Shown one piece after another: positions 42,268 through 60,272 of a DNA stretch of 64,000 nt. The notes below the pieces were generated by a model. It ran no database searches and had not been told where the DNA came from. It was given only the letters and a program-made list of their open reading frames with translations. The DNA is from Acidobacteriota bacterium (lineage in GTDB: Bacteria; Acidobacteriota; CAIWXX01). The position numbers were made by a program, and so were the translations under genes. Location: positions 97,306 to 161,305 of the forward strand of contig JBFMAF010000032.1 in NCBI GenBank assembly GCA_040755995.1. The letters run 5' to 3'. Position 1 is the first letter of the stretch. Each line of letters starts with the position of its first letter.

Positions 42268-42507
42268 GATCGCCTCCTCAAGACTCGTCCAGTCAGCTCA
42301 TCTCGCGTGGTGACCCGGTGCCAGTCCCGCTCCCGCCGGCTCCAGCCGCTCACGTACATCATCCCATCATAACGGAACAACGATCGAAATGGATTCGACG
42401 CTGCTCCTCCTGCGCCGGCATGCGGGCGATGCGGGCGCGCGAGTTTCATCGGTTTGAGGCCACGTTTCCCCGGGCTATAATAAGAGCGTGCAACGCCGGG
42501 ACTGCTC

Positions 42508-43626
42508 ATGAAGCTGAAGAACACCATACTGGGCCTCATCGGCTCCCGGCTCGCGGGCGACCCCTTCTACGCGAGACTCCATGTCACTCACCGTTGCGAC
42601 TACCGTTGTCGCATGTGTGGGCAGCGAGACCGCGTGAAGGACCGCCCGGCGGAGCTTTCTCTCCGTCAACTCGGCCGCGTGGCCGAGCGCCTGGCGGAGC
42701 TTGGGGCGCGACATGTTGTGATCACAGGTGGTGAGCCGTTCATTCGTCCGGACCTCCACAAGCTGGTCGACGTTCTGAATCGGCTGGGCTTCTCGATCCG
42801 CGTCCAGACTAACGGCGGCCCGCTGGTGACGGAGGAGAAGCTGAAGCGCTGCGCGCAGGCCGGGTTGCGGGACTTGAGCGTTTCGATCGACACGCTGGAT
42901 GAAGCGTTGCAGAATTCGATCTGCCAGAGCCGTGACGTGGTGCCGAATGCGCTGAAGACGCTCGGGATGGCCCGCCGCATTCTCTCTCGCGGCATCACTC
43001 AAGCCAATGTTGTAGCATCGCCGCACAACTTCGAGCAGCTCCCTTCGCTCGTTCGCTACTTCCATGAACGAGGGATCTACACGTACATTACACCGGCTAT
43101 GATATCGCCGCCTTCGGCCGATGGAGATGGCTATCTATTCCGAGGCCGTGCCGATGATTTCCGGGGAGAACTGATAGGCTCGGAGCTGCGCGAGCGCGTC
43201 ATCGGCGAGCTGGTGATGATGCGCCGGCGCGGCTATGCGTTGACCAATTCAGCAAGATTCCTCGAAGACTATCGCCGTCATCTGGCGGGGCAGAGCAATG
43301 GTTGGCGCTGTGAAGCCGGGCTCTTGTCACTGGACGTGCTGCCGGATGGGACCGTCGCCATCTGCAAGGAGAAGCATCCATTCGGCCATATCTTGGATGA
43401 CGACTTCATGGTTGCATTTCGCGGCGAGGAGTACCGGAGGCACGCACGCCGGACTGCCGAGTCCTGCGCAGGATGCTTCTACGGCGAATACCGCGAGCCG
43501 CAGTATGTCGTGCACAGTCCTGCCGTGCTGTGGGAGTGGGCCCGCCAGTGGATTCGCAACTACCGGCGCGGGATGCGGTTCAATGAGCGGAAGGAGGCTC
43601 GCAAGCAGCCTGTGGATTCCCGGTGA
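42508..43626 (+). CDS. radical SAM protein with C-terminal twitch/SPASM-like Cys motif
   Basis: CDYRCRMC, ITGGEPF, TNG, SIDT; CEAG...PDG...C...CAGC. Confidence 0.9.
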   Translation: MKLKNTILGLIGSRLAGDPFYARLHVTHRCDYRCRMCGQRDRVKDRPAELSLRQLGRVAERLAELGARHVVITGGEPFIRPDLHKLVDVLNRLGFSIRVQTNGGPLVTEEKLKRCAQAGLRDLSVSIDTLDEALQNSICQSRDVVPNALKTLGMARRILSRGITQANVVASPHNFEQLPSLVRYFHERGIYTYITPAMISPPSADGDGYLFRGRADDFRGELIGSELRERVIGELVMMRRRGYALTNSARFLEDYRRHLAGQSNGWRCEAGLLSLDVLPDGTVAICKEKHPFGHILDDDFMVAFRGEEYRRHARRTAESCAGCFYGEYREPQYVVHSPAVLWEWARQWIRNYRRGMRFNERKEARKQPVDSR

Positions 43627-43748
43627 CTACCCCTCCACCTGGCGCGACGCCTGCAGCCTGTGGATTCCCGGTGACTACCCCTCCACCTGGCGCGACGCCT
43701 GCAGCCTGTGGATTCACGGTGACTACCCCTCCACCTGGCGCGACGCCT
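43605..43748 (+). repeat. 48-bp tandem repeat, three copies
   Basis: GCAGCCTGTGGATTCCCGGTGACTACCCCTCCACCTGGCGCGACGCCT three times, one mismatch in copy 3. Confidence 0.95.
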
Positions 43749-45323
43749 GCAAGCTCAAGTCCCCGCAGCATTCTTCTCATTTCAGTGCTTCTGGCCGCCG
43801 GTTGGTTCGCACTCACGAGAGACGTCGGACTCAATCTGGCCGACGAAGGCTACCTGTGGCACGACATACAGCAGACATTCGAAGGCGGAGTCCCGATTCG
43901 CGACTTCAGAGCATATGACCCTGGGCGCTACTACATGGGGGCCCTGTGGTTCAGCCTCGCAGGACCTGGGATCATGTCGCTTCGGGGATACCTGGCGGCG
44001 ATACAGGCGGTCGGCCTCGCTTTCGGCCTGCTCGCCCTCAAGCGCGTCATCCGTGGACCTCTGCATCTCGCAGCCGTCGGATTCCTCTGCCTCCTATGGA
44101 CGGTCCCGTTGGAGAAGAGATTCGATCACAGCCTGATCATGATGGGTGTGTTCGGAGTCGTATGGCTGATCGAGGCCCCGACGACGGCTCGCCACTTCGC
44201 GATCGGCTTGATGGTCGGGGTCAGCGGGGTGATCGGTCGAAACTACGGTGTCTACATGGCGATCGGGTTTGGATCTCTGATCGCGTTCAGAGCCTTTGCC
44301 GAGGCGCCCCGCAGCGCGGGGAAAGCCGGCCTGGCCTGGGCCGCCGGCATTGTGTCCGGGTACCTGCCGGTCATTCTGATGCTTCTCTACGTGACAGGGT
44401 TCCGGACGAGCTTCGTCGATTCGATTTCCCGGCTAGCCGGCCCTTATTCGCCCGTGAAGTCTCTCCCTGTCCCATGGCCGTGGTCGAGACCACTGCCGTG
44501 GTGGCACGGAGTCTCGGCGAGCGCCTGGCTGCTAGGATGGATGTTCCTTCTTCTTGTCATCCTCCACGTCGCCAACACATACTACGTTCTTCGCTCAGGT
44601 ACGGGAGGGCTACGAAATCGCCCTCTGTGCGCGGCGGCCTGCTTCATCGGGGTTCCAACTCTTTACCAGCTCTTCAGCCGCGCCGATTTCGCCCATCTTA
44701 CGCAGGGGTTCTTTCCGGCGCTGGTCTGCCTGGTCGAGATCCTCGCGCACTCGCGCAACCTCCGAGCCGGTATGGCGCGGTCTGCTCTGCTGGTGACAGC
44801 CGTTCCTTCACTCGCTCTGCTGACTCTCACTCCACTCCTCAACTCCACCGATCTGTCCCTCGCGATCAAGAAGGTAGGCACAGCGCTCGGCCTGCAGGTC
44901 AAGATCAGCAGCTGCCAGATCGATGGCCACAAGCTGTGGCTCAGGCGCAGCCAGGCGGCCTACATTGAGGCCGTAAGGCGATTTTGTGAGCAGAACATAG
45001 CAGAGGGCGAAGGAGTCCTGATCGCGCCCTATCAGCCGGGGCTCTACCAGATCCTCGGCCGAGCTTCGCCCATCTGGGATCCGTACCCGATCCATCTGGC
45101 ATCGGAGCAGGAGCAGAAGGAGATCATTCGCGCACTGGCCGACAAGAGCATCAATTGGGCACTCATCGACGACTCACCGATGGACAGCCTGGATGAGCGG
45201 CGGTTCAGTCGCACTCATGCCCTGGTGTACGAGTACCTGGTGAGTGAGTTCGAGGAGGTTCCATCCGATATCCCGGGGCCGCCGAAGGTGTTCCACAGGC
45301 GCAGGGATCGGAATGCGAGCTAG
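43623..45323 (+). CDS. polytopic membrane protein, GT-C glycosyltransferase-like
   Basis: DEG motif after TM1, GGVPIRDF..YDPGRYY, many TM helices, periplasmic C-terminal domain. Confidence 0.7.
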   Translation: MTTPPPGATPAACGFPVTTPPPGATPAACGFTVTTPPPGATPASSSPRSILLISVLLAAGWFALTRDVGLNLADEGYLWHDIQQTFEGGVPIRDFRAYDPGRYYMGALWFSLAGPGIMSLRGYLAAIQAVGLAFGLLALKRVIRGPLHLAAVGFLCLLWTVPLEKRFDHSLIMMGVFGVVWLIEAPTTARHFAIGLMVGVSGVIGRNYGVYMAIGFGSLIAFRAFAEAPRSAGKAGLAWAAGIVSGYLPVILMLLYVTGFRTSFVDSISRLAGPYSPVKSLPVPWPWSRPLPWWHGVSASAWLLGWMFLLLVILHVANTYYVLRSGTGGLRNRPLCAAACFIGVPTLYQLFSRADFAHLTQGFFPALVCLVEILAHSRNLRAGMARSALLVTAVPSLALLTLTPLLNSTDLSLAIKKVGTALGLQVKISSCQIDGHKLWLRRSQAAYIEAVRRFCEQNIAEGEGVLIAPYQPGLYQILGRASPIWDPYPIHLASEQEQKEIIRALADKSINWALIDDSPMDSLDERRFSRTHALVYEYLVSEFEEVPSDIPGPPKVFHRRRDRNAS

Positions 45324-46507
45324 TTGCCCTGTTCCGAGCCGACGCAGCGCCTCAGGATCTCGCTGACGGCAGATGCAATCGCTATCGCCACAGTCCGATC
45401 CCCCTCCTCCGAGATGTGCACGGGATCTATGAAAACCGTGCGGGCTTCATCGTGGAAGATCGCAGACAGATCGAGGCACTGGCCGGACGGACCCAGTGCG
45501 GCCTGGCGCTCGCGGAGGCCGAGCAGCACTCGGTTCGTGAGCGTCGCCAGGGATCGATTGACAATCAGCGTTTTCTCCCAATCGGAAAGGACGAGCTTCT
45601 GGGAAAAATCCGGCTGCCAGACGATCAGCACGGAGACTCCGTGTGCCCGCGCGACTGACTGCGCCGCGCGCATGTTCGCACAATAGTCCCGGACGACGTC
45701 GGCTGCCAGCGGTTCCACGCGGGAATCCGGCAGCCACTGCTGCGAACTACCCGGGCTGCTGTACAGCCTGTCTCGAATGCCTCGCGCCAGATGGAACAGG
45801 GCGGTCTTCTCGATAAACCCCCGGCGCCAATTCAACTGGTCGTACAGCTGAAACTCGGCAATGCGATGGCTCTCATTCTGAGGGATGCCCGCGACTCTGC
45901 TCTGGTAGGCGGAGAAGACGTCGTTGTACGCTCCGTAGAAGACCGCGAGATCAGGAGGCGCCTGGCCGCGCAGCTCGAGCTCGAACGTCAGCAGATCCTG
46001 AGTGGAGACGTAGCCGGTCTCTCCATAGTTGACGACGCGAACCGGCATGCCGCGCGCGTGCATCTCTCTGGACAGTTCTGAAGGGATCGTGAAATCGTCC
46101 CTCGCGCCGGTGCCCCAGAGTGTCGAGCCGCCGAACATCCAGATCAGAGCCCGCGGATGCGACTCAGCAGGCGCCCACGTCCTGCGAATGCCACGGTCGT
46201 CTATGTTGATAAATGCGCCAGCCTGCGGCGTTCGCCTGTAATAGACATAGGATTTCCATGAAACGGTCTCCGTCCGCTTGAACTCATCCCAATACTGATA
46301 GGCCCACGATTCCCCCTTGTAGACGTCGGATTCTGCGCGGGGGTCGAGCTCTTGGCCGGGCTTGTGGTGTTTCCAGGCGTATCTGACCCGCAGTCCTCCT
46401 TCCAACAACAGAACGGCGCAGAGCGTGAGCCCAATGACTCGCCATCCGGTGTCGAGTGCCCGAGCCGCCACCGAGAGCGTGCGCCGAGCTGTCCCGCCGA
46501 TCCCCAT
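45320..46507 (-). CDS. SGNH/GDSL hydrolase family protein
   Basis: MFGGSTLWG, G-x-Y-N-D, WQP, DPVHISEEG; N-terminal TM. Confidence 0.85.
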   Translation of the reverse strand: MGIGGTARRTLSVAARALDTGWRVIGLTLCAVLLLEGGLRVRYAWKHHKPGQELDPRAESDVYKGESWAYQYWDEFKRTETVSWKSYVYYRRTPQAGAFINIDDRGIRRTWAPAESHPRALIWMFGGSTLWGTGARDDFTIPSELSREMHARGMPVRVVNYGETGYVSTQDLLTFELELRGQAPPDLAVFYGAYNDVFSAYQSRVAGIPQNESHRIAEFQLYDQLNWRRGFIEKTALFHLARGIRDRLYSSPGSSQQWLPDSRVEPLAADVVRDYCANMRAAQSVARAHGVSVLIVWQPDFSQKLVLSDWEKTLIVNRSLATLTNRVLLGLRERQAALGPSGQCLDLSAIFHDEARTVFIDPVHISEEGDRTVAIAIASAVSEILRRCVGSEQGN

Positions 46508-46672
46508 GCGATTTGCTCCTGACAGTCCCACTTCGAAGCGACCGTGCGATTCTACGCCATTGAGCGGCCGCCCTGCGAGTCGTGATCGCCGCAGGCACGC
46601 GGGGACCATTCAACGCGACTCATGTCTTGCTGTCCGGCGGCAGGTGCCACTCGTCTCCCGTCGGTCCGGGCG

Positions 46673-48853: not shown

Positions 48854-50962
48854 ATGAGAAAGAAAATAGCAGTATTCACGAGCATAGCGATCCTTCTGGC
48901 GGCGGCTACGACGCTCACGATGAGATGCCGCGGCAAGGGGTCGAAGCCGGTCACTTCCGTTCTGCTGATCACCGTCGGCACACTGCGAGCCGATCACGTC
49001 GGGTGCTATGGCGGGGCGTCGGTGTCGACTCCTGCCATGGACGAATTGGCTGCGTCCGGCGTTCGTTTTGCGCGCGCATACGCCCACAACGTCTCTGCTC
49101 TTCCTTCCCACGCGAACATCCTCAGCGGGATGCTGTCCGTCGCGCACGGTGTCCGCGCCGATTCGGGGTTCAGATTCCCTGGGAATATCGAGACCGCTGC
49201 GACCCTGTTGAAGGCGCGCGGCTTCACGTGCGGCGCCTTTGTCGGCGCCTCCCCTCTGGATTCCCGCTATGGGCTAGGCATCGGCTTCGACGTCTATGAC
49301 GATCACTACGGCGACGCGACGGAAGCGCAGGATTTTCGGCTGGTAGAACGACGGGCCGAGGCTGTTGCGACTCCGTTCCTGCACTGGCTGGATGGCAAGC
49401 AAGCCGGAGCCAAATGGTTCGCATGGGTCCACTTCAACGACCCACACGCGCCGTACGACCCGGTGGAACCGTATCGCTCGAAGTTCGCCTCGAAGCCGTA
49501 CGACGGCGAGATCGCTTACGTAGATTCACAGATCGCGCGGATACTGGAGCATCTCCAGCAAAAGGGATTGGATCAATCCACCTGCATCATCCTAACTTCG
49601 GATCACGGAGAAGGGCTCGGGGAGCACAACGAGCCCACGCACGGAGTTTTCGCATATGAGAGCACGCTCCGCGTCCCGTTGATCGTGAAAGCCCCCGATT
49701 GTGCGCCGGGGACGATCCAGCAGACTGTCCAACACATCGATATCCTGCCAACCATAGTAGAGCTCATCGGCGAGCCTGTGCCGGCGAACCTCAAAGGCAG
49801 GAGCCTCAAACCGCTGCTGTATGGAGCCAGCGAGGACGGCGCGGCGCGCGACATCTACTTCGAGTCGGTGGGCCCGGGCCTGGATCGGAACTGGGCACCC
49901 CTGACGGGGATCGTCTCCGGCAACTACAAGTACATCGACGTGCCGATCACGGAGCTCTACGATCTGGCCAAAGACACCGGCGAGAAGGAGAACGTCTTCG
50001 AGATGAGGTCGGAGGTCGCTGCCGACCTCAAGAAACGTCTCGCATCGATCAGCGAGATCGGCGCCTCGGCGGCATCGGGACATGACCAGGAGGAGCTCGA
50101 TCGACTCGCGAGCCTCGGCTACGTCTCGACCGGGAGCTCCGAGTCCGAGTCGGCGAAGACCTACACCAGCGAGGACGATCCAAAGAACCTGATCCCGCTG
50201 GACAGCATGCTCGAAGACGGCGTCGCCGCGGCACGGGCCGGCGATCTGGAACGGGCCAGGCGGACATTCTCGGAGATCATCTCCATGCGTCCCGGCATGA
50301 GCATCGCCTACTCAGAGGTCGCCTTCGTTCACAGGCACATGGGGCAGCCGCAGAAGGGGGTCGAGATCCTGGAGCGCGCGCTGAAGGAAGGCCATGCGGC
50401 CACGGGCATGCTCGCGAAGCTGGGTTTGTGCTTCAGCGATGCGGGCAAGAACGAGCGTGCGATAGAGGTTCTGCAGCAGGCCGTGCGAGAGAGCGACGAC
50501 AACATAGATGCGCAAACCTACCTGGGAATGGCTTACGCAAGGGCCGGCCAGAGCGACAAGGCTATCAGCACCTTCGAGAATATCCTCGTGGATGATCCGG
50601 GAAACGTCGCGGCCCACGTCCATATCGGGCAGGTCTACCTCGACAAGAAGGACTACGCCGCCGCCACGCAGGCCATCAACAAGGCGCTTCAGATCGACGC
50701 GCGATTCGCCCCGGCGCTCAGCCTCATGGGGGATGCGATGGCCGGCACAGGAAGCAACGACGCAGCGATTTCCAACTGGAAGCGTGCCATCGAAACCGAC
50801 CCTAGGCGGTACGAGGCGATCTACAAGCTCGCGAGCCTCTGCCAGAGTCTCGGCCGCTCAGCCGAGGCGGCCACCTACGCGGATCAGTTCGTGAAAACTG
50901 CGCCGCCCGCGCGCTACAAGCGCGAGATCGAACAGATGAGGAAGATGCTCGCCAGGGGGTAG
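48854..50962 (+). CDS. sulfatase-like hydrolase/transferase with C-terminal TPR repeats
   Basis: TLRADH, LPSH, WVHFNDPHAPY, SDHGE, RLASLGYVS linker, TPR repeats. Confidence 0.9.
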   Translation: MRKKIAVFTSIAILLAAATTLTMRCRGKGSKPVTSVLLITVGTLRADHVGCYGGASVSTPAMDELAASGVRFARAYAHNVSALPSHANILSGMLSVAHGVRADSGFRFPGNIETAATLLKARGFTCGAFVGASPLDSRYGLGIGFDVYDDHYGDATEAQDFRLVERRAEAVATPFLHWLDGKQAGAKWFAWVHFNDPHAPYDPVEPYRSKFASKPYDGEIAYVDSQIARILEHLQQKGLDQSTCIILTSDHGEGLGEHNEPTHGVFAYESTLRVPLIVKAPDCAPGTIQQTVQHIDILPTIVELIGEPVPANLKGRSLKPLLYGASEDGAARDIYFESVGPGLDRNWAPLTGIVSGNYKYIDVPITELYDLAKDTGEKENVFEMRSEVAADLKKRLASISEIGASAASGHDQEELDRLASLGYVSTGSSESESAKTYTSEDDPKNLIPLDSMLEDGVAAARAGDLERARRTFSEIISMRPGMSIAYSEVAFVHRHMGQPQKGVEILERALKEGHAATGMLAKLGLCFSDAGKNERAIEVLQQAVRESDDNIDAQTYLGMAYARAGQSDKAISTFENILVDDPGNVAAHVHIGQVYLDKKDYAAATQAINKALQIDARFAPALSLMGDAMAGTGSNDAAISNWKRAIETDPRRYEAIYKLASLCQSLGRSAEAATYADQFVKTAPPARYKREIEQMRKMLARG

Positions 50963-51004: not shown

Positions 51005-51040
51005 GACGCGGTGACGCGGAGACACGGAGACGCGGTGAAG
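51005..51040 (+). repeat. GACGCGGW-like octamer array (inverted copy at 57686-57716)
   Basis: gacgcggt gacgcgga gacacgga gacgcggt gaag. Confidence 0.7.
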
Positions 51041-51113: not shown

Positions 51114-51941
51114 CTATACCTCGACGCCGAAGAAGCCTTTCAGGCCGAAGCCGAAGACGATGGACAGAATGAAGAATGAGATAAGCCAGTGGATGGACCA
51201 GCCGAAGAGGTTCATCTCCTGGCCGGGGTAGACGAGCTCGACCCTGGTCACAGGGAGGCCGGCCGGAATCGGCGACTCGCCGGGGGCGAGCAGACGGTCG
51301 AATAGATGATTCTGGACTCTAGCACGGGACATCTTCGCAATGGGCTTGCGCGATACTACGAGCTGCTTGGTGAACGACTGATTGTCCACCGTGAACGTCA
51401 GCGTGTGGTCGCCGTATTGCGTTCCTCTCACCCGCCAGTCGATCTCCTTCCCTTCTTCGACACGGAGAGGGGGCGTCTCGATCTCGACGCCGGGAGAGGG
51501 CTGGAGAGTGAGATCGGTCTGCAGCGGGCTGCGGTCCAGCTTCACCTTCAGCAGCACAGATTCGCCCGGCTTCAGCGGCCGGTAGCCAAACCAGAGATCC
51601 AGCTGGATCAGGATGAGGACGATCGGGACCAGCATCACGAGCATCGGTTTCAGCGCATAGAACATATACCTGGCATTGTAGCCGAGGATCTTCTTCTGAG
51701 CCTGGATGGTAGCCTGGAAGTTGTCCTTGTACAGGCGGAGCTCGAGAAGGTGGGCCTTGATCTTGTCCTTCACGCTCTTGATCCCCTCCTGGTTCGACGT
51801 GTACTTGTAGACCCAGAGCATGAGAAGGCCAGTCAAGAGAGACACGAGAGTCATGCCCACCCAGGGATTCACGTTCTGGAAAGGGTAGAGAAGAAGGTCG
51901 AACGTCTTGCCGAACGCGAAATTCACAACCGATGCCATCAT
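51114..51941 (-). CDS. membrane protein resembling DUF106/EMC3/TMCO1 (Oxa1 superfamily) with an inserted soluble domain
   Basis: TM1, coiled coil, KPMLVMLVP TM2, beta-rich insert, W-x-x-W-L-x-x-F...S...LK C-terminal TM. Confidence 0.55.
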   Translation of the reverse strand: MMASVVNFAFGKTFDLLLYPFQNVNPWVGMTLVSLLTGLLMLWVYKYTSNQEGIKSVKDKIKAHLLELRLYKDNFQATIQAQKKILGYNARYMFYALKPMLVMLVPIVLILIQLDLWFGYRPLKPGESVLLKVKLDRSPLQTDLTLQPSPGVEIETPPLRVEEGKEIDWRVRGTQYGDHTLTFTVDNQSFTKQLVVSRKPIAKMSRARVQNHLFDRLLAPGESPIPAGLPVTRVELVYPGQEMNLFGWSIHWLISFFILSIVFGFGLKGFFGVEV

Positions 51942-51954
51942 TTACCTGCGCGGG

Positions 51955-52146
51955 CTAGGAAATGTAGCCGAGCCCCTTCAGCCTCTTCTTGATCTCCTCT
52001 TCGCTCTTCGCGTCATCGAGCTTCGCGATCTCCTTTTCCAGGCAGTGCGTGATGAACTCCTCGGGCGAGGAATACCCAGCCAGATCGGCGAACCTCTTCA
52101 CCTTCTCGACCAGCTCTTTGTCGAGCCTTACCTTCACGGTACTCAT
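51955..52146 (-). CDS. small ribbon-helix-helix (CopG-like) protein ending RLKGLGYIS
   Basis: VKVRLDKEL...AGYSSPEEFI; RBS AAGGAG. Confidence 0.75.
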   Translation of the reverse strand: MSTVKVRLDKELVEKVKRFADLAGYSSPEEFITHCLEKEIAKLDDAKSEEEIKKRLKGLGYIS

Positions 52147-52203
52147 TCATTGCTCCTTGATTCACCTAACGTTGGCATGATGCCTTTGGGTTCTTGACTC
52201 GCC

Positions 52204-52277
52204 GAACCGGGGAATCGGGGAAACGGAGAAACGGAGACTGGCAAACGCCACTCTCCGATTCCCCGGTTCTCCCATTC
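52204..52277. repeat. octamer-based inverted repeat / hairpin
   Basis: gaaccggggaatcgggga...tctccgattccccggttc. Confidence 0.6.
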
Positions 52278-52309
52278 CGCCACCGATCACCCACACCATC
52301 CTCCGGATG

Positions 52310-54304
52310 CTACACAGGAAACTGCAGCACGTTGTTGCCTACCATAGAGGCCGGTTTCTCGATTCCGAAGACGTGCAGGATGCTTGCGGTCAGATCGTAG
52401 AGGGCCGGGAAGTCGACGGTCACCTTTGCGTTGGTGAACAAAATCCCGGGGATCACGTCGGGATCCATGCAATGATCGCCGCTCCACTTCTCCTTGTTGT
52501 CCTCCAGGACCTCCGGCGGGACTTTCCCCAGGGGCGTGGCCCAGGAGCAGCGGTAGCCGCGGTTGTAGCCGACGAGTATGTCAGGGGCCTCATTCACGTA
52601 AGCACCCTGGTAGACGTCCTTGGCCACGTAAGCCCTGGTGATCACTCGCTCCCCTGTTTGCGGATCGGTCACCTCTTCGAGCTTCCGAGCGATTTCCCTG
52701 ATGAGAGACTCTGAATCGGCACCCGGCGCGACGATTCCCTTACCCTCTCTGTCGCGCTGGTTGACATAGAGGCCGTTGAGCCCGAGCGCGTACGCTCTGG
52801 TTCGCGACCAGTCCGTGTTTTCGAAAAACACGGCATCCCTACGCCGTTCGCTTATCAGCCTCATGTAGCCGCTCTCCTTCAGCCACGTATTGAGGTTGAA
52901 GGCTCGGCGGAACGGCGTGAACCCGTGGTCCGACATCGCGAGAATCATGGTGTCCTTGTCGACCTTGCTCATGACCTTGGACACGACGCGGTCCATGGCT
53001 ACGTAGATATCCTCTATCGCGCCGCCGTACTTCCCCGCCAGACTCGGATCGTAAGCAGGATGTTCCTTGTCAATGTAGCGCCAGAACATGTGCTGCCGCT
53101 GATCTGTGCTCGAGAAGTAGTAGAACAGAAGGCCGGAGTCGAAGCGTCCCAATTCGTAGTCGAAGATCGCCCCGTCTTCCGCAAGGACATCGCCGTCCTG
53201 CGCCAGGAACTCCGCGTCATCCAACACCCCGTGCTCCAGAGCCTTCGTGTCTGCCGGCAGCCCCTTGGTATAGAAAGGACCGAACTTCTCGTCGAGATCT
53301 TCCGAGTAGCTCTCGGGCGTCGAGATCGGCAGTGCCGGGTTGCCCGGGTCGAGGTTCACGGGTGAGACATAGAGCTTGAACTCGGGATGAGCCTGCTTCA
53401 GATGAAACTTGCAGATCCCGGGCACGCCCTGCGTGGGTATCAGCGGGAACTCGACCCGCTTCCAGTCGCTCCATTCTCCTTCCGCAAGAATGAACTCCTG
53501 ATCCTGGATTTCTATCTTCGCGACGGGATTCGCCGGATCGAGGAAGACAGTGAAATCGATGTAGGTGTCGGGATTGCCTTTCCTGAACGCGTTGGGTGGG
53601 CCCGGCAGCTTCGCCTGCACCTTGCCTGCAACGACGCTGACCTGATGGACCTCACCACCGTCCATGTGCGGCCGGAGCTCCGCGTGAGCCGTCGTGTAGT
53701 AGTTGAACACGCCGTAGCCACCCATGATGTCAGGCGTCCCCATTCCAGAGATCGTCCGCTGCTCGGTCGGAGCCGGAGGGAAATTGGACGGCATCTTGTA
53801 GACGGTGGCCGGAATGCCGTGCTTCTCCAGGATCTGCCAAAACGCGTCGCCCCGCCGGAGCAGCAAGACTTCTCCACTGGACAATGGAATGACGTAGCTT
53901 CCGATATTGAGCGTCCGCTCCCCCGGTGTCACGGTCGAGGTCGACAGAAAGGGGCTGTAGTCCTTCGGGTTCCTGTGGATGAAATCGAAGATGGCATGGC
54001 CGCCGGGATTCATCCCGGTAATGAAATTGGACCACGCCACGGGACTCTGGGGCGGCGTGCTCGTTCTCAGGGGTCTGAATCCTCCCATGCCGGCCAGCTT
54101 CTGAAGCGACGGGAGCTTCCCCTGCTTCATGAACTGTTCGGTGAGATGCGGGTCCATACCGTCAAAGCCGAGAACAATGACCTTGTACCTGGTATCCCGG
54201 CTCCCCGCGACCCTGGCGATCACGTTCCGGGCGCTTCCGAGCGCACAGAGCGAGCCGGCCGCGAGGCCCATTTTCACGAACTCTCTTCTATCGAACTTTC
54301 TCAT
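52310..54304 (-). CDS. alkaline phosphatase superfamily / type I phosphodiesterase-nucleotide pyrophosphatase, Tat signal
   Basis: DRREFVK; GFDGMD, PPQSPVAWS, DQRQH, SDHGF, WSGDH. Confidence 0.88.
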   Translation of the reverse strand: MRKFDRREFVKMGLAAGSLCALGSARNVIARVAGSRDTRYKVIVLGFDGMDPHLTEQFMKQGKLPSLQKLAGMGGFRPLRTSTPPQSPVAWSNFITGMNPGGHAIFDFIHRNPKDYSPFLSTSTVTPGERTLNIGSYVIPLSSGEVLLLRRGDAFWQILEKHGIPATVYKMPSNFPPAPTEQRTISGMGTPDIMGGYGVFNYYTTAHAELRPHMDGGEVHQVSVVAGKVQAKLPGPPNAFRKGNPDTYIDFTVFLDPANPVAKIEIQDQEFILAEGEWSDWKRVEFPLIPTQGVPGICKFHLKQAHPEFKLYVSPVNLDPGNPALPISTPESYSEDLDEKFGPFYTKGLPADTKALEHGVLDDAEFLAQDGDVLAEDGAIFDYELGRFDSGLLFYYFSSTDQRQHMFWRYIDKEHPAYDPSLAGKYGGAIEDIYVAMDRVVSKVMSKVDKDTMILAMSDHGFTPFRRAFNLNTWLKESGYMRLISERRRDAVFFENTDWSRTRAYALGLNGLYVNQRDREGKGIVAPGADSESLIREIARKLEEVTDPQTGERVITRAYVAKDVYQGAYVNEAPDILVGYNRGYRCSWATPLGKVPPEVLEDNKEKWSGDHCMDPDVIPGILFTNAKVTVDFPALYDLTASILHVFGIEKPASMVGNNVLQFPV

Positions 54305-54331
54305 ATCATCGCTCCTTCCGCTTCAGAATCA

Positions 54332-56422
54332 TCATTGCATCAATGGACGGCCGTCCATATGAGCTGGCGGCCGGAGCCCGAACAAATCTAGAACGGTCGG
54401 CGCGATGTCGATGATGTGCGGTGTGGACCCGTCGATCTTTCGATTGGAAAAGAAAACGCCCGGCACAAGCGCCGGATCGATGCAGTGATCGCCGCTCCAG
54501 GCCTTCGCATTATCGTCGATGACGACACGGTTGACCTTCCCCTTCACTCCGTCCCAGGAAGCCCTGTAGCCTTCGTTGTACCCGATGATGAAGTCCGGCA
54601 TGTTCTCCTTGTACGGGCCCGGTGGAAGCTCATCTCTGTCGTAGATCCTGCTCATGGCCGCGACACCATGCTCCTCGTCGCGCAGCAGGCTCAGCTTCTC
54701 CATGATCTCCTTCTTCAGCGCATTGGTCTCTTCGCCCGGCGCCACGATTCCTCTCGATTCGCGTCCCTTCTGGTTGATGTAGAGCCCGCCGAGACCGAGC
54801 GCATAGGCTTTCGTGCGGTCCCAGTCGACACCCTGGAACCACTCGCCGCCTTCCTCCTTGCCGTCCTTCATCGACAGATATCCGTTCACGTACAGCCAGG
54901 AATTCAGGTTGACTCCGCGGCGGAACGGGAGGAATCCATGATCGGACATGACGATTACGACGGTCCTGTCATCGGCCTTCTTCATCACCCTTCCTACCAT
55001 CTCATCCATCTTCTCATAGAGGTCCTCGATGATCTTTGCGCTCATGGCGCGCTGGCCGGCCTTCAACGCTGGATGATTCGGGTCGAGGTAGCGGAAGAAC
55101 ATGTGCTGAATGCTGTCCGTCGTCTCGAAAACGCAGGCGGCGACTCCTCTCTGCGTCTTCTCTATTGCGTTGAAGAACATCGCCTCCCACTCGCGGTGAT
55201 TCGAGTACGTCAGCTCCAGAAACGCCTCCTCGCTAAGCGCCCCCTCGTTCAGCGCCCACGTGTCGTTGGCCTCGCCAAGCGTTATGAAGCTGCCCAGCAG
55301 CTTGGAGAGATAGACAGAGTAGATGAGCGGGTGTGAAATCGGAAGAGCCGGATTCTCCGGATCGATATTCAGCGGCGTCAGGTACATCTCGAAATGCGGC
55401 TGAATCTGCGACACGTAGAAGCGGGCGACCGAGCTGATGCCGATGCCGAGGCCCGGACGGAACGTCAGCTTCTTCCACTCGGAAAAGACGCCCTTCTTCA
55501 ACGAAAACGTCTGGCCCGAGACCGTGACGTGCGCTTCCTGCTTCTCCCTGTCCAGGCGTATCTTCAACGGGAGCCGGATCTCCTCGACCTTCTTCAGCAT
55601 GGTGTTCTCGGGCCCGGAGATGTACGTGTCGACGTGACCATCGGTCACATCGACCGGGATGAATACACCACCTTCGTGCTCCTTCACCTTCTCCTTGTCC
55701 GACGTGTAGAAGAAGAAAGTGCCCTGGCTCCCCTTGAGATCCGGCGCACACATCCCCGAGAGGAGATGCCCCTTGAATTTCTCGGGAGGGAAGGTGATCG
55801 GAACCCTCAGGATCGTTGAGAAAATCCCATTGTCACCGAGGATCTTCCAGAACGGAACGCTCTTGCGCATTCCCCTGATCTCAGGCTTCGACAGCGGGAT
55901 GTTGTACTTCCCGAGAGAGAGAACCCTCTTCGGACTCCCGATATGGGCTGACGAGAGATCCGGCAGATATGTCCTCGTGTCCCGGCTCAGGAAGTCGAAG
56001 ATGTTGTGCTTCGCCGGATGCGAACCGGTCATGAAAGATGACCAGGCCACGGGGGAAATCGACGGAATCGACGTCTGAAGCCGCGCGTAGGTGCCCTGCT
56101 CTTTCATCCGCGAAAGATTCGGCAGCTTCCCCTCGGCCATGAACCTGTCCGCCAGTCGCGGGTCCATTCCGTCCAGCCCCACGATGAAGACCTTGTCGAC
56201 CTTGCTCTTCCCGTAAGCCCTCTTACCTCTCAGCATCCGGAACACGTACCGGAACGGCCACGCCAGCAGCGAGAAGACCGCAAGCACCATTACCAGGAAC
56301 AAGACGAAGAAAGAGGAGATGAACGCGAATCCGGCCCCGGGTCCGATGTAGGCCGTCAGGGGGCAGGGGAGGAGAGCCAGGAGAGCAGCAAGTGCAAGGA
56401 ACCTCAGAGTTCTATTCTTCAT
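54332..56422 (-). CDS. paralogous alkaline phosphatase superfamily protein with signal peptide and YIGPG-TM anchor
   Basis: AYIGPGAG followed by a TM; GLDGMD, SISPVAWS, DSIQH, SDHGF, WSGDH. Confidence 0.88.
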   Translation of the reverse strand: MKNRTLRFLALAALLALLPCPLTAYIGPGAGFAFISSFFVLFLVMVLAVFSLLAWPFRYVFRMLRGKRAYGKSKVDKVFIVGLDGMDPRLADRFMAEGKLPNLSRMKEQGTYARLQTSIPSISPVAWSSFMTGSHPAKHNIFDFLSRDTRTYLPDLSSAHIGSPKRVLSLGKYNIPLSKPEIRGMRKSVPFWKILGDNGIFSTILRVPITFPPEKFKGHLLSGMCAPDLKGSQGTFFFYTSDKEKVKEHEGGVFIPVDVTDGHVDTYISGPENTMLKKVEEIRLPLKIRLDREKQEAHVTVSGQTFSLKKGVFSEWKKLTFRPGLGIGISSVARFYVSQIQPHFEMYLTPLNIDPENPALPISHPLIYSVYLSKLLGSFITLGEANDTWALNEGALSEEAFLELTYSNHREWEAMFFNAIEKTQRGVAACVFETTDSIQHMFFRYLDPNHPALKAGQRAMSAKIIEDLYEKMDEMVGRVMKKADDRTVVIVMSDHGFLPFRRGVNLNSWLYVNGYLSMKDGKEEGGEWFQGVDWDRTKAYALGLGGLYINQKGRESRGIVAPGEETNALKKEIMEKLSLLRDEEHGVAAMSRIYDRDELPPGPYKENMPDFIIGYNEGYRASWDGVKGKVNRVVIDDNAKAWSGDHCIDPALVPGVFFSNRKIDGSTPHIIDIAPTVLDLFGLRPPAHMDGRPLMQ

Positions 56423-56592
56423 TGATCACTGTTCCGCGTGGTGTCGCGCTATATTCCGCCGGTGCAGATGCACGACTGCTGCACGTCACCGGCTGCCCCG
56501 TTCGCGTCCTTTCACCTCGATGTCACAAAGTACCCAGTCTCGACCTCGATCGAAGGGCGAAGGGTAACCCCCGTCGAGGAGAATGTCAATAG

Positions 56593-56808
56593 AAATGCGG
56601 AATACGGAGTGCGGAATGCGGAATCAGTCATGCCGATGGACGGTGGCCGGCCGGGGAGAATGCGGAATGCGGAGTGCGGAATCCGCCATTCGAGCGGCGA
56701 GTGGCCGGCCGCGGAGAATGCGGAGTGCGGAGCGCGGAATGTGCCATACGAACGGATGGAGCCGGGCAAACCGGAATGCGGAACCTGCCATACGAGCGGA
56801 TGGAGCCT
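56593..56808 (+). repeat. AATGCGG/AGTGCGG heptamer arrays within larger duplicated units
   Basis: Several runs such as aatgcggaatgcggagtgcggaat; duplicated gtggccggcc and tgccatacga..ggatggagcc. Confidence 0.8.
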
Positions 56809-56879
56809 CGCACTGCCGGACACCGGTGGACGCGAGGCCGCGCCTCGAGATCCGGACGCGACCTCGCCATGCGGTGTAC

Positions 56880-57503
56880 CTACGACTTGTGGTCGACGTA
56901 GCCGTTGTCTTGAAGGTACATGAGGATTTCGGCGGCGATCTCCTGCGGGGTCATCTCGGCTGTCTTCATGACGAGCTCGGGATGAAGCGGTTCCTCGTAT
57001 GGATCATCCACTCCCGTGAAGCCCTTGAGCTGCCCCATGCGGGCTTTCTTGTAGAGGCCCTTGGGATCGCGTTCTTCGCAGACCGTAGCCGGTGCGTCGA
57101 CGAAGATCTCGATGAATCCGAGGCCGGCATCCACGTGCAGCTGCCGGGCCCGGTCCCGGTCCCTGCGGTATGGAGAGATGAAGCTGGTCATCGCGATCAC
57201 GCCGGCGTCGGCGAACAGCTTGGCCACTTCACCGATCCGGCGGATGTTCTCTTCCCGATCCTCGGCCGAGAAACCGAGATTCTTGTTCAGTCCGTGGCGG
57301 ATGTTGTCCCCGTCCATGACATAGGCCAGGTAGCCGCGCCTCACGAGCTCGTGCTCCAGCGTGAAGGCAGCCGTGCTCTTGCCCGAGGACGGCAGGCCCG
57401 TGAACCAGAGCGTGCAGCCGCGCTGCTTGAGCAGAATCTCGCGCTGCGCGCGCTCGACGTGACTCTGGTGCCATGTGATGTTGGTTGCCTTGACGATAGT
57501 CAT
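56880..57503 (-). CDS. cysC: adenylyl-sulfate (APS) kinase
   Basis: [44 protein letters not shown]. Confidence 0.96.
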
Positions 57504-57755
57504 GAAATCCTCCGTTATTAGTGCATTGATGATGATTGATTATGCCGGCCGTCCCGCAGGCAGCCGTGACGACCGCGCGCCCGATTCTCCGTAATACAGG
57601 GCGGCACACACTGCGTTAAGTCGACGATTCTGTTGTGGACCCATGACGCGCTGTATTGCTTGTGGACCTCGCAGCGGCCGGCTCTCTTCACCGCGTCTCC
57701 GCGTCACCGTGTCTCCCTCCATTGGCACCCAGCTCGATGCCGCCCGAACCTCGAT

Positions 57756-57992
57756 TCACAGGTACCCGAGCCCCTTCAGTCGCTTGCGGACCTTCTCCAG
57801 GTCCTGGGCGGTGAATGTCTCGCTCTCCGGCCCCGGTGCGCCCACCTCATGTGCCGACACCAGGTCCCGAAGCACGTAGACCACGAAGTCGGTCACCGAG
57901 TCGAAGCCCGATCCTTCGATGATCTGCTGCAGTTTTCGATATAGAGGTCTCGGGATCTTGATTGTGACCTTGCTCTCACGATTCCATGGCAT
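57756..57992 (-). CDS. CopG/RHH family protein ending RLKGLGYL
   Basis: VTIKIPRPLY...GFDSVTDFVVYVLR. Confidence 0.8.
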   Translation of the reverse strand: MPWNRESKVTIKIPRPLYRKLQQIIEGSGFDSVTDFVVYVLRDLVSAHEVGAPGPESETFTAQDLEKVRKRLKGLGYL

Positions 57993-58004
57993 CTTACACC
58001 CCTA

Positions 58005-58054
58005 TTGCACTCCAATTGGATTCCTAATATACTCCAGCAGGAGTGTAGAGTCAA
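58005..58054. promoter_or_regulatory. overlapping promoters on opposite strands for the divergent genes
   Basis: Plus strand TTGCAC-17-TATACT; minus strand TTGACT-17-TATATT; palindrome TCCAATTGGA at 58011-58020. Confidence 0.6.
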
Positions 58055-58069
58055 ACTCAGATTTGTGAG

Positions 58070-58681
58070 GTGCCAATGTTAAAGAACCTGCTCCAGCGAA
58101 TGCGTTACGGCGATCCCGTGATTCTCGTCTCGGGACTCCCGCGGTCGGGCACGTCGATGACGATGAAGATGCTCGAGGCGGTGGGGCTAGCAACGGTCGT
58201 GGACGGAGTACGCGAAGCGGACGAGGACAATCCGAAGGGGTACTTCGAAGACGAGCGAGTCAAGGATCTGCACAAGATGGAGGACAAGGGTTGGGTTCGA
58301 GAAGCGAGAGGTAAGGCCATCAAAGTCATCTCGTATCTTCTCAAGGAGCTTCCCGACGACAACCTCTACAAGGTCATCTTCATGCGGAGAAACCTGAAGG
58401 AGGTGCTCGCCTCGCAGAAGAAGATGCTCGATCGCCGCGGAGAGAAATCTGAGACCAGCGATGAGCGGATGATCGAGATATACGAGGATCACCTGTGGAA
58501 GGTGAACTATCTTTTCAAGCACAAGTCGAACTTCGAAGCGATCGACGTCGAGTACACGGCGGTGATCAAGGATCCGCGCACGCAGGCGACACGAATCCGC
58601 GACTTCCTGGGGCTCAACCTCGACGTTGACAAGATGGTGGCCGCGGTCGATCCGAACCTGTATCGCAACAGGGCCTCATAG
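58070..58681 (+). CDS. PAPS-dependent sulfotransferase family protein
   Basis: SGLPRSGTS PAPS-binding loop, NPKGYFE, R...EVLASQ. Confidence 0.88.
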   Translation: MPMLKNLLQRMRYGDPVILVSGLPRSGTSMTMKMLEAVGLATVVDGVREADEDNPKGYFEDERVKDLHKMEDKGWVREARGKAIKVISYLLKELPDDNLYKVIFMRRNLKEVLASQKKMLDRRGEKSETSDERMIEIYEDHLWKVNYLFKHKSNFEAIDVEYTAVIKDPRTQATRIRDFLGLNLDVDKMVAAVDPNLYRNRAS

Positions 58682-59494
58682 ATGGGTAGCGGGATGACAC
58701 AGAACAAGACGAGGGATGATGATCTCAGGTTGATATCGCGGGCGCTCGACGAGGCGGTGAATGTGCTTGCCGCATATACGTCGGGGGCGATTCAGGAAGA
58801 GATCAAGGCGGGCGGCTCGCCGGTCACGGAGGCTGATCGACGTATCGATGCCGTGCTCAAGAAGATACTGCCCGCCGACGGCGACGGATGGCTCTCGGAG
58901 GAGACCGCGGACGAGAAGTCGCGGCTTCAGAGGAGCCGGGTGTGGGTGGTCGATCCGCTCGACGGCACGCGCGAATTCGTGGATGGGCTACCCGAGTGGT
59001 GCGTCTCGATCGGCCTGGTGGAAGACGGCCGTGCCGTTGCGGGCGGCATCCACAATCCCGCCACGGGACAGCGGGTGCTGGGATCGCTCGAGACGGGCGT
59101 CACGCTCAACGGCGAGCGCGCGCGAGTTCGGCCGCTCACCTCACTCAAGGGGATCCGCGTGCTGGCCAGCCGCACCGAGGTGAAGAAGGGCCAGTGGGAG
59201 CGATTCCGCGGGGCGCCGTTCGAGTTCGTTGCCATGGGATCGGTGGCGTACAAGATGAGCCTGGTGGCGGCCGGCCTTGCCGATGCCACCTGGACTCTTG
59301 TTCCCAAGAACGAGTGGGACGTGGCCGCCGGAGCCGCGCTGGTGAAGGCCGCGGGCGGTGTCGTCCACACGCTCGACGGCGGCGAGCCTCGCTTCAACCG
59401 CGCAAACACGCTCTACGACGGCTTCATCGCCGTGCCCCGCGGAATCGTAGCCGAGCTCGGCGAGTTCCTGAAGCTCCCGCTGCCACGGGGATAG
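58682..59494 (+). CDS. cysQ: 3'(2'),5'-bisphosphate nucleotidase CysQ / inositol monophosphatase family
   Basis: VTEAD, LSEE, WVVDPLDGTREF, EWDVAAG. Confidence 0.88.
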   Translation: MGSGMTQNKTRDDDLRLISRALDEAVNVLAAYTSGAIQEEIKAGGSPVTEADRRIDAVLKKILPADGDGWLSEETADEKSRLQRSRVWVVDPLDGTREFVDGLPEWCVSIGLVEDGRAVAGGIHNPATGQRVLGSLETGVTLNGERARVRPLTSLKGIRVLASRTEVKKGQWERFRGAPFEFVAMGSVAYKMSLVAAGLADATWTLVPKNEWDVAAGAALVKAAGGVVHTLDGGEPRFNRANTLYDGFIAVPRGIVAELGEFLKLPLPRG

Positions 59495-59617: not shown

Positions 59618-60013
59618 TCAGACTGACCAGTTCTCCATCCTGAGTCCGGGCACACGCTTGAAACGACGCCTGTTGTTGGTCACGAGCACGTAGTTGAGCA
59701 CAAGAGCGGTCGAAGCCACGATGAGATCGAAATCCGCAAGCGGGCTACCGCGTTTCTCCAGGGTCGCCTTGATCGAGTCAAAAGTTTCCATGACCGCACG
59801 GCTGACATCGATGACAGGAAAGATCTCGGCGGTGCGCCGCACAGTCGCCAGGTTTGCCTCGGCCCGGGCCGACTCCATTGCGCCATAGTACAGCTCTCCA
59901 TATGTCACGACCGATATCGCTTTCGGGAGAGTGGCTTTAGCCGCCAACTGCGCATTGACCTTCGCATGGCCCTTCAGCGAGTAGATCATGGTGTCGGTAT
60001 CAAGCAAATACAT
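59618..60013 (-). CDS. vapC: VapC PIN toxin
   Basis: YLLDTD, ELYYG, DLIVAS.AL, LVTNN. Confidence 0.9.
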   Translation of the reverse strand: MYLLDTDTMIYSLKGHAKVNAQLAAKATLPKAISVVTYGELYYGAMESARAEANLATVRRTAEIFPVIDVSRAVMETFDSIKATLEKRGSPLADFDLIVASTALVLNYVLVTNNRRRFKRVPGLRMENWSV

Positions 60014-60272
60014 CGCTGCTGAACCTCTTTCCGCCGCGCCGAGCCTGCCGAATCTCGCCTGCGATTTCCCGCGCCGACCGCTCGTCTTGCCATGATCCGG
60101 CCAGGGCCAGAAACGCCTCTGTGGCCTCTCTGGCCGATGCGGCCGGCCGAGCCAGGGAGTCCTTTATGAAGGCCACGACCTCCTGGCTGATGGACCTGTT
60201 ATCCATGGCGGCGCGAGCACGGAGGGCCTCATAAAGATCATCCTCAATGCCTTTGACCTGCAGTGTAGCCAT
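60000..60272 (-). CDS. FitA/VapB-like RHH antitoxin
   Basis: MATLQVKGIEDDLYEALRARAAMDNRSISQE; overlaps the toxin start. Confidence 0.85.
   Translation of the reverse strand: MATLQVKGIEDDLYEALRARAAMDNRSISQEVVAFIKDSLARPAASAREATEAFLALAGSWQDERSAREIAGEIRQARRGGKRFSSDVFA

Follow-up and report, generated by a model that had tools for sequence, protein, structure and literature searches.

A conserved bacterial gene set that probably hands activated sulfate across the inner membrane for cell-surface sulfation

Positions 51114 to 59494 of a 64,000-nucleotide stretch from an Acidobacteriota bacterium (assembly GCA_040755995.1, contig JBFMAF010000032.1, positions 97,306 to 161,305 of the forward strand; hereafter the window) hold a locus of eight genes whose products probably pass activated sulfate out of the cytoplasm and over the inner membrane for sulfation of the cell surface. 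Its core, referred to below as the module, comprises four genes encoding two enzymes of the alkaline phosphatase (AP) superfamily (apA and apB), a small ribbon-helix-helix-like (RHH) protein (RHH1) and a membrane protein of the DUF106/Ylp1 type. The system appears to be real, widespread and undescribed, each of its parts belonging to a known superfamily; no published account of the gene set was found in the literature searched, most subscription journals lying outside its coverage. An earlier note on the window, made from the sequence by a model, had listed the same eight genes, all of which were recovered in the same places, and had suggested a trans-envelope relay of sulfo or phospho groups. 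The co-occurrence of the genes, the opposite topology of the two enzymes and the sulfo link speak for that suggestion at the level of sequence; cysC, cysQ and the sulfotransferase are not constant neighbours of the core.

Conservation of the core genes

A search of genome contigs identified 317 relatives of apB, and the loci of the best 80 of these were compared. Where the contig left room, apB was accompanied downstream by apA in 76 of 77 loci, by RHH1 in all 63 and by the membrane-protein gene in all 61, and the five split-locus genomes tested all retain both paralogues elsewhere. The record titles of apB relatives include Aminicenantes, other Acidobacteriota, Gemmatimonadota and Eiseniibacteriota. 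Among 301 genomes drawn evenly from the phylum of the window (G024 being included as a count only), 84 carry the membrane-protein gene, nearly always as one copy. In the phylum of locus L063 it was present in three of 151 genomes, too few for a statistical replicate, and both loci retrieved from that phylum have a sulfotransferase gene adjacent to the module. The neighbourhood survey proposed in the earlier note has thus revealed wide co-occurrence, and the arrangement of the locus genes is far beyond chance. Residue conservation was read from alignments that each took in part of the available references (48 of 60 for A1, 35 of 62 for A2, 49 of 79 for A3, 46 of 63 for A4, 18 of 20 for A5 and 21 of 23 for A6).

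Databases name apA and apB only as “predicted AlkP superfamily phosphohydrolase,” which would suit generic phosphodiesterases that lie beside these genes by chance. Such an explanation is hardly credible, being largely refuted by the near-invariant four-gene order across phyla, by the single copy, and by the gene fusions and the linkage to 3′-phosphoadenosine 5′-phosphosulfate (PAPS) described below.

Active sites and predicted topology of apA and apB

The genes apA (52310..54304, minus strand; 664 aa) and apB (54332..56422, minus strand; 696 aa) encode paralogues, as had been recognized, that are 39% identical over 657 aa and share the motif SPVAWS. Both match PF01663, the nucleotide pyrophosphatase/phosphodiesterase (NPP) branch, above the cut-off, and the nucleophile is invariant in alignments A3 and A4, as are the six residues that bind the metals (D, D, H, D, H, H): Ser87 with D48, D401, H405, D459, H460 and H611 in apA, and Ser123 with D84, D436, H440, D494, H495 and H646 in apB. 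The Ser occupies the NPP nucleophile position, aligned with the Thr of the structure 2gsn. The Asn of 2gsn 21 residues after the nucleophile, which presumably binds a phosphoryl oxygen, aligns with a Phe in apB that is invariant in both paralogues. The formylglycine sulfatase motif C/S-x-P-x-R is not present in apA or apB, SPVAWS standing in its place.

The N-termini of the two proteins point to different destinations. The Tat-type sequence RREFVK of apA agrees with the earlier reading, and an export signal was found on every apA N-terminus inspected, its type varying with lineage between Tat, lipoprotein and Sec. By contrast, apB combines a signal peptide, the motif YIGPGAG (56330..56350, minus strand), a transmembrane (TM) helix, a basic amphipathic helix and an NPP-fold domain predicted to face the cytoplasm. 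The motif Y[IV]GPG occurs in 78 of the 80 loci, the remaining two being cut by contig ends, and would form the mature N-terminus; Tyr1 (Y25 in this apB), G3, P4, G5, A6 and G7 are invariant in 50 apB sequences. The residue preceding Tyr1 is A, G or S in all 112 sequences, the segment leading to a WP-R anchor consists of exactly 23 uncharged residues in all 107 scored (five without the WP anchor were unscored), and the TM segment is followed by a median of seven K/R and no D/E. When YxGPG peptides encoded on their own were sought, 38 matches came up, 37 of which were apB N-termini or fragments, as judged by length, Pfam or name, with six sequences inspected.

Gene fusions provide a further indication. 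Eight of nine longer relatives are natural apB-helix-apA fusions (43–82% identical), five of which have several full-length cluster members, and locus L076 is a ninth fusion case; in the seven junctions scored, a hydrophobic helix (KD19 1.9–2.4) mostly follows a basic patch. Since an internal N-in signal exports apA only when the apB end is in the cytoplasm, the fusions favor opposite faces; against this, the two genes are adjacent and could fuse easily. Taken together, the signal-peptidase pattern, the 23-residue segment with its K/R flank and the fusions support the topology predicted in the earlier note, in which the apB catalytic domain is cytoplasmic and apA is exported, rather than a shared compartment. 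What looked in L076 like a fusion of 824 aa with a sulfotransferase proved to be only an upstream open frame and was rejected. A separate protein of 1351 aa (P0331) carries a lipoprotein-type apA-like domain, a second AP domain and TPR repeats, and may represent a fusion of an outer hub with an end-user.

Association with activated sulfate

Three further genes of the locus relate to PAPS. The product of cysC (56880..57503, minus strand) passes the Pfam and NCBIfam cut-offs for adenosine 5′-phosphosulfate (APS) kinase, which makes PAPS. The product of the gene at 58070..58681 (plus strand) exceeds the PF13469 and PF00685 cut-offs and has the PAPS-binding loop PRSGTS, so that it is indeed a PAPS-dependent sulfotransferase; its best PDB sequence matches, TPST2/TPST1, are weak (E 3e-4, residues 11–37 only). 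The adjoining gene at 58682..59494 (plus strand), previously called cysQ, encodes an IMPase-family phosphatase, but its assignment to CysQ did not stand (TIGR01331 118 against 228.8 bits, with a similar score for HisN). As that score lies under the cut-off, a CysQ-like removal of 3′-phosphoadenosine 5′-phosphate (PAP) is suggested by context; an IMPase-family gene adjoins cysC or the sulfotransferase gene in L055, L072, L171, L175, L177 and L180.

The same association appears across genomes. An APS kinase is present in 81 of the 84 module genomes and 103 of the 217 others, and among genomes with the Thr/LGY enzymes described below the figures are 79 of 82 and 57 of 104. The sulfotransferase family is found in 57 of 84 module genomes against 12 of 217 others, and in 36 genomes, spread over 20 families, it lies no more than 10 kb from the module; a family-level table points in the same direction (25 families with both, 12 with the module only, 5 with the sulfotransferase only and 46 with neither). 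PF01507 (PAPS reductase or CysD) was not found in 55 of the 84 module genomes and at least one of its 29 matches is CysD, which suggests that the PAPS is mostly not made for reductive assimilation.

As the earlier note observed, the window contains no ATP sulfurylase; the genome (G000, 99.8% complete) carries sat elsewhere: contig C30 encodes a Sat-CysC fusion, and further sat copies lie on C34. It also has two PF13469 matches and, in a search with PF01507, none. On C34, positions 60043–69637 (L233) hold aprB, aprA, qmoC, two HdrA-like genes (qmoA/qmoB) and sat, a set for dissimilatory sulfur metabolism, and 84167–91213, near this region, hold two more sat copies and a fragment. This aprBA-qmoABC-sat set could use activated sulfate, and aryl-sulfate exchange is reversible according to the excerpted text of PMC13426309; an inward route may therefore be imagined, in which sulfate removed from external esters by apA would move inward through the relay and the sulfotransferase would run in reverse with PAP to give PAPS. 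That direction is very improbable, given that the linked sat, cysDN and cysC make PAPS and that the CysQ-like enzyme would remove the PAP needed.

The proposed loading enzyme

The sulfotransferase gene lies in 20 of the 80 loci compared and a cysC-type gene in six. In 52 loci the place of the sulfotransferase is taken by apC, a third paralogue of about 430 aa without a signal, upstream of apB in many loci; no locus has both and eight have neither. Likewise, among the 84 module genomes, the sulfotransferase is linked within 10 kb in 36 and apC in 23, and never both, while at least one of the two candidate loaders occurs in 79. Genomes carry apC in 0 of 36 cases when a sulfotransferase is linked, in 14 of 21 when it is unlinked and in 22 of 27 when it is absent; of these 27, 15 have no PF13469 match, and no PF00685 match was found in 14 of the 17 tested. 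In many loci apC adjoins sat, cysC or cysDN (exceptions are L213–L216 and L221), as in the order cysD-cysN-apC-apB-apA-RHH1-DUF106 of G029 and G229. This exchange looks like a non-orthologous replacement and suggests that the AP-fold apC can do the job of the sulfotransferase. Another cytoplasmic AP paralogue, of about 460 aa, stands beside sat, cysC or an RHH-LGY gene in L223, L230, L231 and L061 and is possibly a second type of loader.

The earlier note had left the transferred group open between sulfo and phospho. The sulfo group is favored by the near-constant presence of APS kinase in module genomes and by the position of apC beside sat, cysC and cysDN, and it is likely that the module handles PAPS-derived sulfate.

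The LGY tail and the sulfatase-like enzymes

Two RHH proteins had been noted at the locus, and both carry in addition an acidic linker and a C-terminal L..LGY tail. RHH1 (51955..52146, minus strand; 63 aa), with weak RHH_1/NikA matches, lacks a signal peptide and ends in a GLGY tail whose residues G58, L59, G60 and Y61 are invariant in 37 sequences; it is proposed to be a cytoplasmic Tyr carrier or a docking peptide. RHH2 (57756..57992, minus strand) resembles the C-terminal part of CysC-RHH-LGY fusions of other genomes, matching the C-terminus of the L219 CysC with 27% identity over 70 aa (E 1e-4). The LGY tail occurs, as an extra C-terminal piece, on all 11 CysC proteins adjoining apC, joined in four cases by an RHH-like stretch that resembles RHH2, and on none of 13 others; the CysC of the window is without it. 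It is absent from 108 apA, 118 apB and 75 apC sequences, and the C-terminal LGY of CysD was not counted as a tail.

A large set of enzymes bears the same tail. In G000, 32 of 37 sulfatase-like matches have it, many of them exported, and the nucleophile of these 32 is Thr in 23, Ala in one and unread in eight; an alignment of 21 paralogues, with a mean column identity of 38%, shows both the LGY tail and the Thr nucleophile to be invariant. The tail is also found on six of eight other apB-like paralogues of the genome. No Cys-type sulfatase was read among the 37 matches, and the two Cys-type sulfatases seen both lack the tail. G000 has about 30 such mostly exported Thr-nucleophile sulfatase-like proteins with an LGY tail; proteins of this kind (Thr/LGY enzymes) occur in 83 of the 84 module genomes; G109, in which apB is truncated (L164), is the sole one without a match. 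One tailed paralogue, an exported sulfatase-like protein with TPR repeats encoded convergently beside the locus (48854..50962, plus strand), belongs to this group of candidate end-users and is probably an inactive pseudoenzyme, because Ala replaces its nucleophile and Gly its first metal Asp.

The distribution of tails, present on CysC, RHH1 and exported enzymes, suggests that the tail-less core enzymes have partners with tails on either side of the membrane. Where CysC adjoins apC, its tail would suit docking as well as carrying, the LGY tail tethering CysC to apC so as to channel PAPS and an RHH dimer completing apB; such docking belongs to an unlikely alternative to Tyr carriers that is taken up below.

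The DUF106/Ylp1 membrane protein

The membrane protein listed in the earlier note (51114..51941, minus strand; 275 aa) can be specified as a DUF106/Ylp1-type member of the Oxa1 superfamily. The Pfam match to EMC3_TMCO1 is below the cut-off (E 1.8e-4); membership follows from the match of profile A1 to MJ0480/Ylp1 (5c8j, E 3e-10), the AF2 model and its structural matches. In the model (pLDDT 95.5), helices at 26–48, 51–70, 75–118 and 252–266 surround a beta domain. By structure comparison the model comes closest to chain 8 of 7tut, a multipass translocon (Z 11.6, rmsd 3.6, 136 aligned), a chain which we take to be TMCO1, and YidC (3wo7) gives Z 7.7; a Foldseek search with the membrane domain returned no match at E up to 0.001. 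The beta domain, inserted between TM2 and TM3, is Ig-like by structural matches and would lie on the outer face.

Conserved residues among 150 representatives are W252 (99%), P99, W169, Y92 (96%) and Y238, and the polar S34, T37, S260 and Q113 are also conserved. The bacterial DUF106 family comprises 1,329 clusters at 50% identity (E up to 1e-30), and G000 has a canonical YidC in addition to this protein. In one other locus (L236, G313) the DUF106 gene is in two pieces. In the excerpted text of PMC5868721, DUF106 is described for archaea and eukaryotes.

A proposed relay and its alternatives

The model that we favor is drawn from these elements. Sat and CysC would make PAPS, and the CysQ-like enzyme would remove PAP and so draw the flow outward. 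A loader, here the sulfotransferase and in other genomes apC, may place the sulfuryl group on the LGY-tail Tyr of RHH1, RHH2 or CysC, from which it could pass to the apB Ser and then to the mature N-terminal Tyr of apB, the proposed membrane-crossing carrier. The DUF106/Oxa1 protein would let the N-terminal peptide of apB reach either face of the membrane. Outside, the apA Ser could run the mirror reaction and charge exported sulfatase-like enzymes with a Thr nucleophile on their LGY tails; these enzymes would deliver sulfate to envelope glycans, glycoproteins or lipids. We lean slightly toward an outward relay of some form; the full Tyr-carrier model as drawn is tentative, with odds somewhat against it. 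It is tempting to speculate on a sulfotyrosine bucket brigade, in which an Oxa1-family insertase serves as a group-transfer channel, apA is a hub recharging dozens of Thr enzymes that are really periplasmic sulfotransferases, and apC is a PAPS-using sulfotransferase of new fold, but this remains a doubtful proposition.

Several points weigh against the relay. The two-metal site of apA and apB is a complete one of the NPP type, and their listed fold matches are only phosphodiesterases and phosphatases; sites of this type normally attack phosphorus, although the position of the 2gsn Asn is taken by Phe here. APS kinase is missing from three of the 84 module genomes and either loader from five, and kinship among the genomes causes Fisher tests to overstate the contrasts. 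Thr/LGY enzymes are present in 133 of 217 module-less genomes, on which account the module was rejected as the sole supplier of this family, and 60 of these carriers have no APS kinase match, so that many Thr/LGY enzymes may not use sulfate. Tyr1 of apB would arise on the outer face and would have to flip to reach the apB active site, and we know of no precedent for such cycling. A hydrophilic groove with a conserved basic residue is a feature of YidC and EMC3; in the DUF106 protein polar residues are conserved, but a conserved groove Arg or Lys appears to be lacking, K98 occurring in 18% of the 150 representatives. No acceptor or glycan locus was found linked to the module. Finally, the C-terminal tail of choline sulfatase can be purely structural (PMC5870055, excerpt).

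The complete ligand set, the nearest folds (NPP and PhnA) and the 60 module-less carriers without CysC are what would be expected of a phosphoryl or nucleotidyl system, in which the NPP sites cleave PAPS, APS or another nucleotide at phosphorus, for PAPS turnover or for transfer of AMP, PAP or a phospho-headgroup, the sulfate link being regulatory or indirect. The Thr-nucleophile AP enzymes LtaS and EptA, to which there are weak matches, move phospho groups. Nevertheless, apC occupies the locus position that a bona fide sulfotransferase has in other genomes, a substitution that speaks for transfer of a sulfuryl group, and destruction of PAPS next to the genes that make it would be futile; a phosphorus chemistry is therefore improbable.

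A different possibility is a sulfation complex without Tyr carriers, in which the LGY tail docks or completes an active site as outlined above, a small-molecule or lipid intermediate crosses the membrane, and the DUF106 protein inserts apB or thins the membrane. In the excerpts, the choline sulfatase tail forms the active site of a neighboring subunit (PMC5870055) and Ylp1 binds nascent membrane proteins in vitro (PMC5868721), both of which are compatible with it. Yet it would leave unexplained the invariant Tyr at position +1 of mature apB, the fixed 23-residue spacing, and the retention of a dedicated insertase beside canonical YidC. We consider it unlikely, though the strongest of the alternatives.

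If the relay is correct, the large “sulfatase-like” family, with about 30 members in G000, would be re-annotated as possible transferases, the bacterial DUF106 insertase family would gain a function, and envelope sulfation would probably be widespread in Acidobacteriota. Should the Tyr chemistry prove wrong, the exchange of sulfotransferase and apC would still make an AP-fold PAPS-using enzyme directly testable.

Other features of the locus and its surroundings

A divergent promoter had been proposed in the earlier note; the gap measures 77 bp and its promoter-like matches are at chance (two found, 2.0 expected), and no operator or promoter above chance was found. Intergenic repeats at 56594–56812, 52201–52280 and 51005–51036 consist of short units in copies spaced by 58 bp with a long hairpin and are REP-like; they were rejected as parts of the system, since their motifs recur 14–58 times genome-wide. 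Directly downstream of the locus, 59618–60272 (minus strand) encodes a VapC-like PIN toxin and a FitA-like RHH antitoxin. Elsewhere in the window, 36205–46609 holds a 2020-aa open reading frame, a radical-SAM-like one (judged from its motif by eye), a multi-TM protein that matched no family and a weak GDSL/SGNH protein, and is possibly concerned with envelope modification.

Comparison with known systems

The enzymes apA and apB share their fold, two-metal ligands and nucleophile position with NPP/ENPP and PhnA (2gsn, 7n1s, 3szy), but differ from them in having Ser for Thr, Phe at the 2gsn Asn, a large inserted beta domain, only 12–13% identity, and a pairing on what are predicted to be opposite faces of the membrane. 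Similarly, the membrane protein has the three-TM core and cytosolic coiled coil of archaeal Ylp1/MJ0480, TMCO1 and EMC3 (PMC5868721, excerpt), from which it is distinguished by its bacterial origin, the Ig-like insert, the family-specific Y92 and its tie to one operon beside a normal YidC.

At the level of the whole system, the proposed relay resembles the Dlt (DltABCDX) and PatA/PatB MBOAT-SGNH acylation relays, in which, according to the excerpted text of PMC12148441, Tyr shuttles move acyl groups across membranes: a group is activated inside, an invariant Tyr lies near the terminus of a membrane-bound peptide, a Ser-nucleophile enzyme acts outside, and a small carrier protein takes part. 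By contrast, the module would carry a sulfuryl group, its Tyr is at a cleaved N-terminus, its membrane part is of the Oxa1 family, AP-fold enzymes are placed on both faces, and no MBOAT or SGNH family member is found among the eight genes of the locus. Thus, the module would work like Dlt/Pat but is not a member of that class.

Agl30 and Agl31 of Halobacterium salinarum, one membrane-bound and one soluble, belong to the AP superfamily, are sulfatase-like and attach sulfate to glycans (PMC11980604, excerpt). They are end-users of an unknown donor and, by description, are closer to the Thr/LGY family than to apA and apB; their mode of action is left open in that paper, in which the word PAPS does not occur. 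A donor is required for any sulfation that bacteria carry out beyond the cytoplasm, and the module offers a testable answer. Aryl sulfates can serve in this way, as the periplasmic PAPS-independent aryl sulfotransferases (EcAST, 3ELQ) use phenolic sulfates as sulfuryl donors in ping-pong transfer outside the cytoplasm (PMC13426309, excerpt). EcAST is a beta-propeller with a sulfo-His intermediate, whereas apB has the AP fold; the two are unrelated enzymes.

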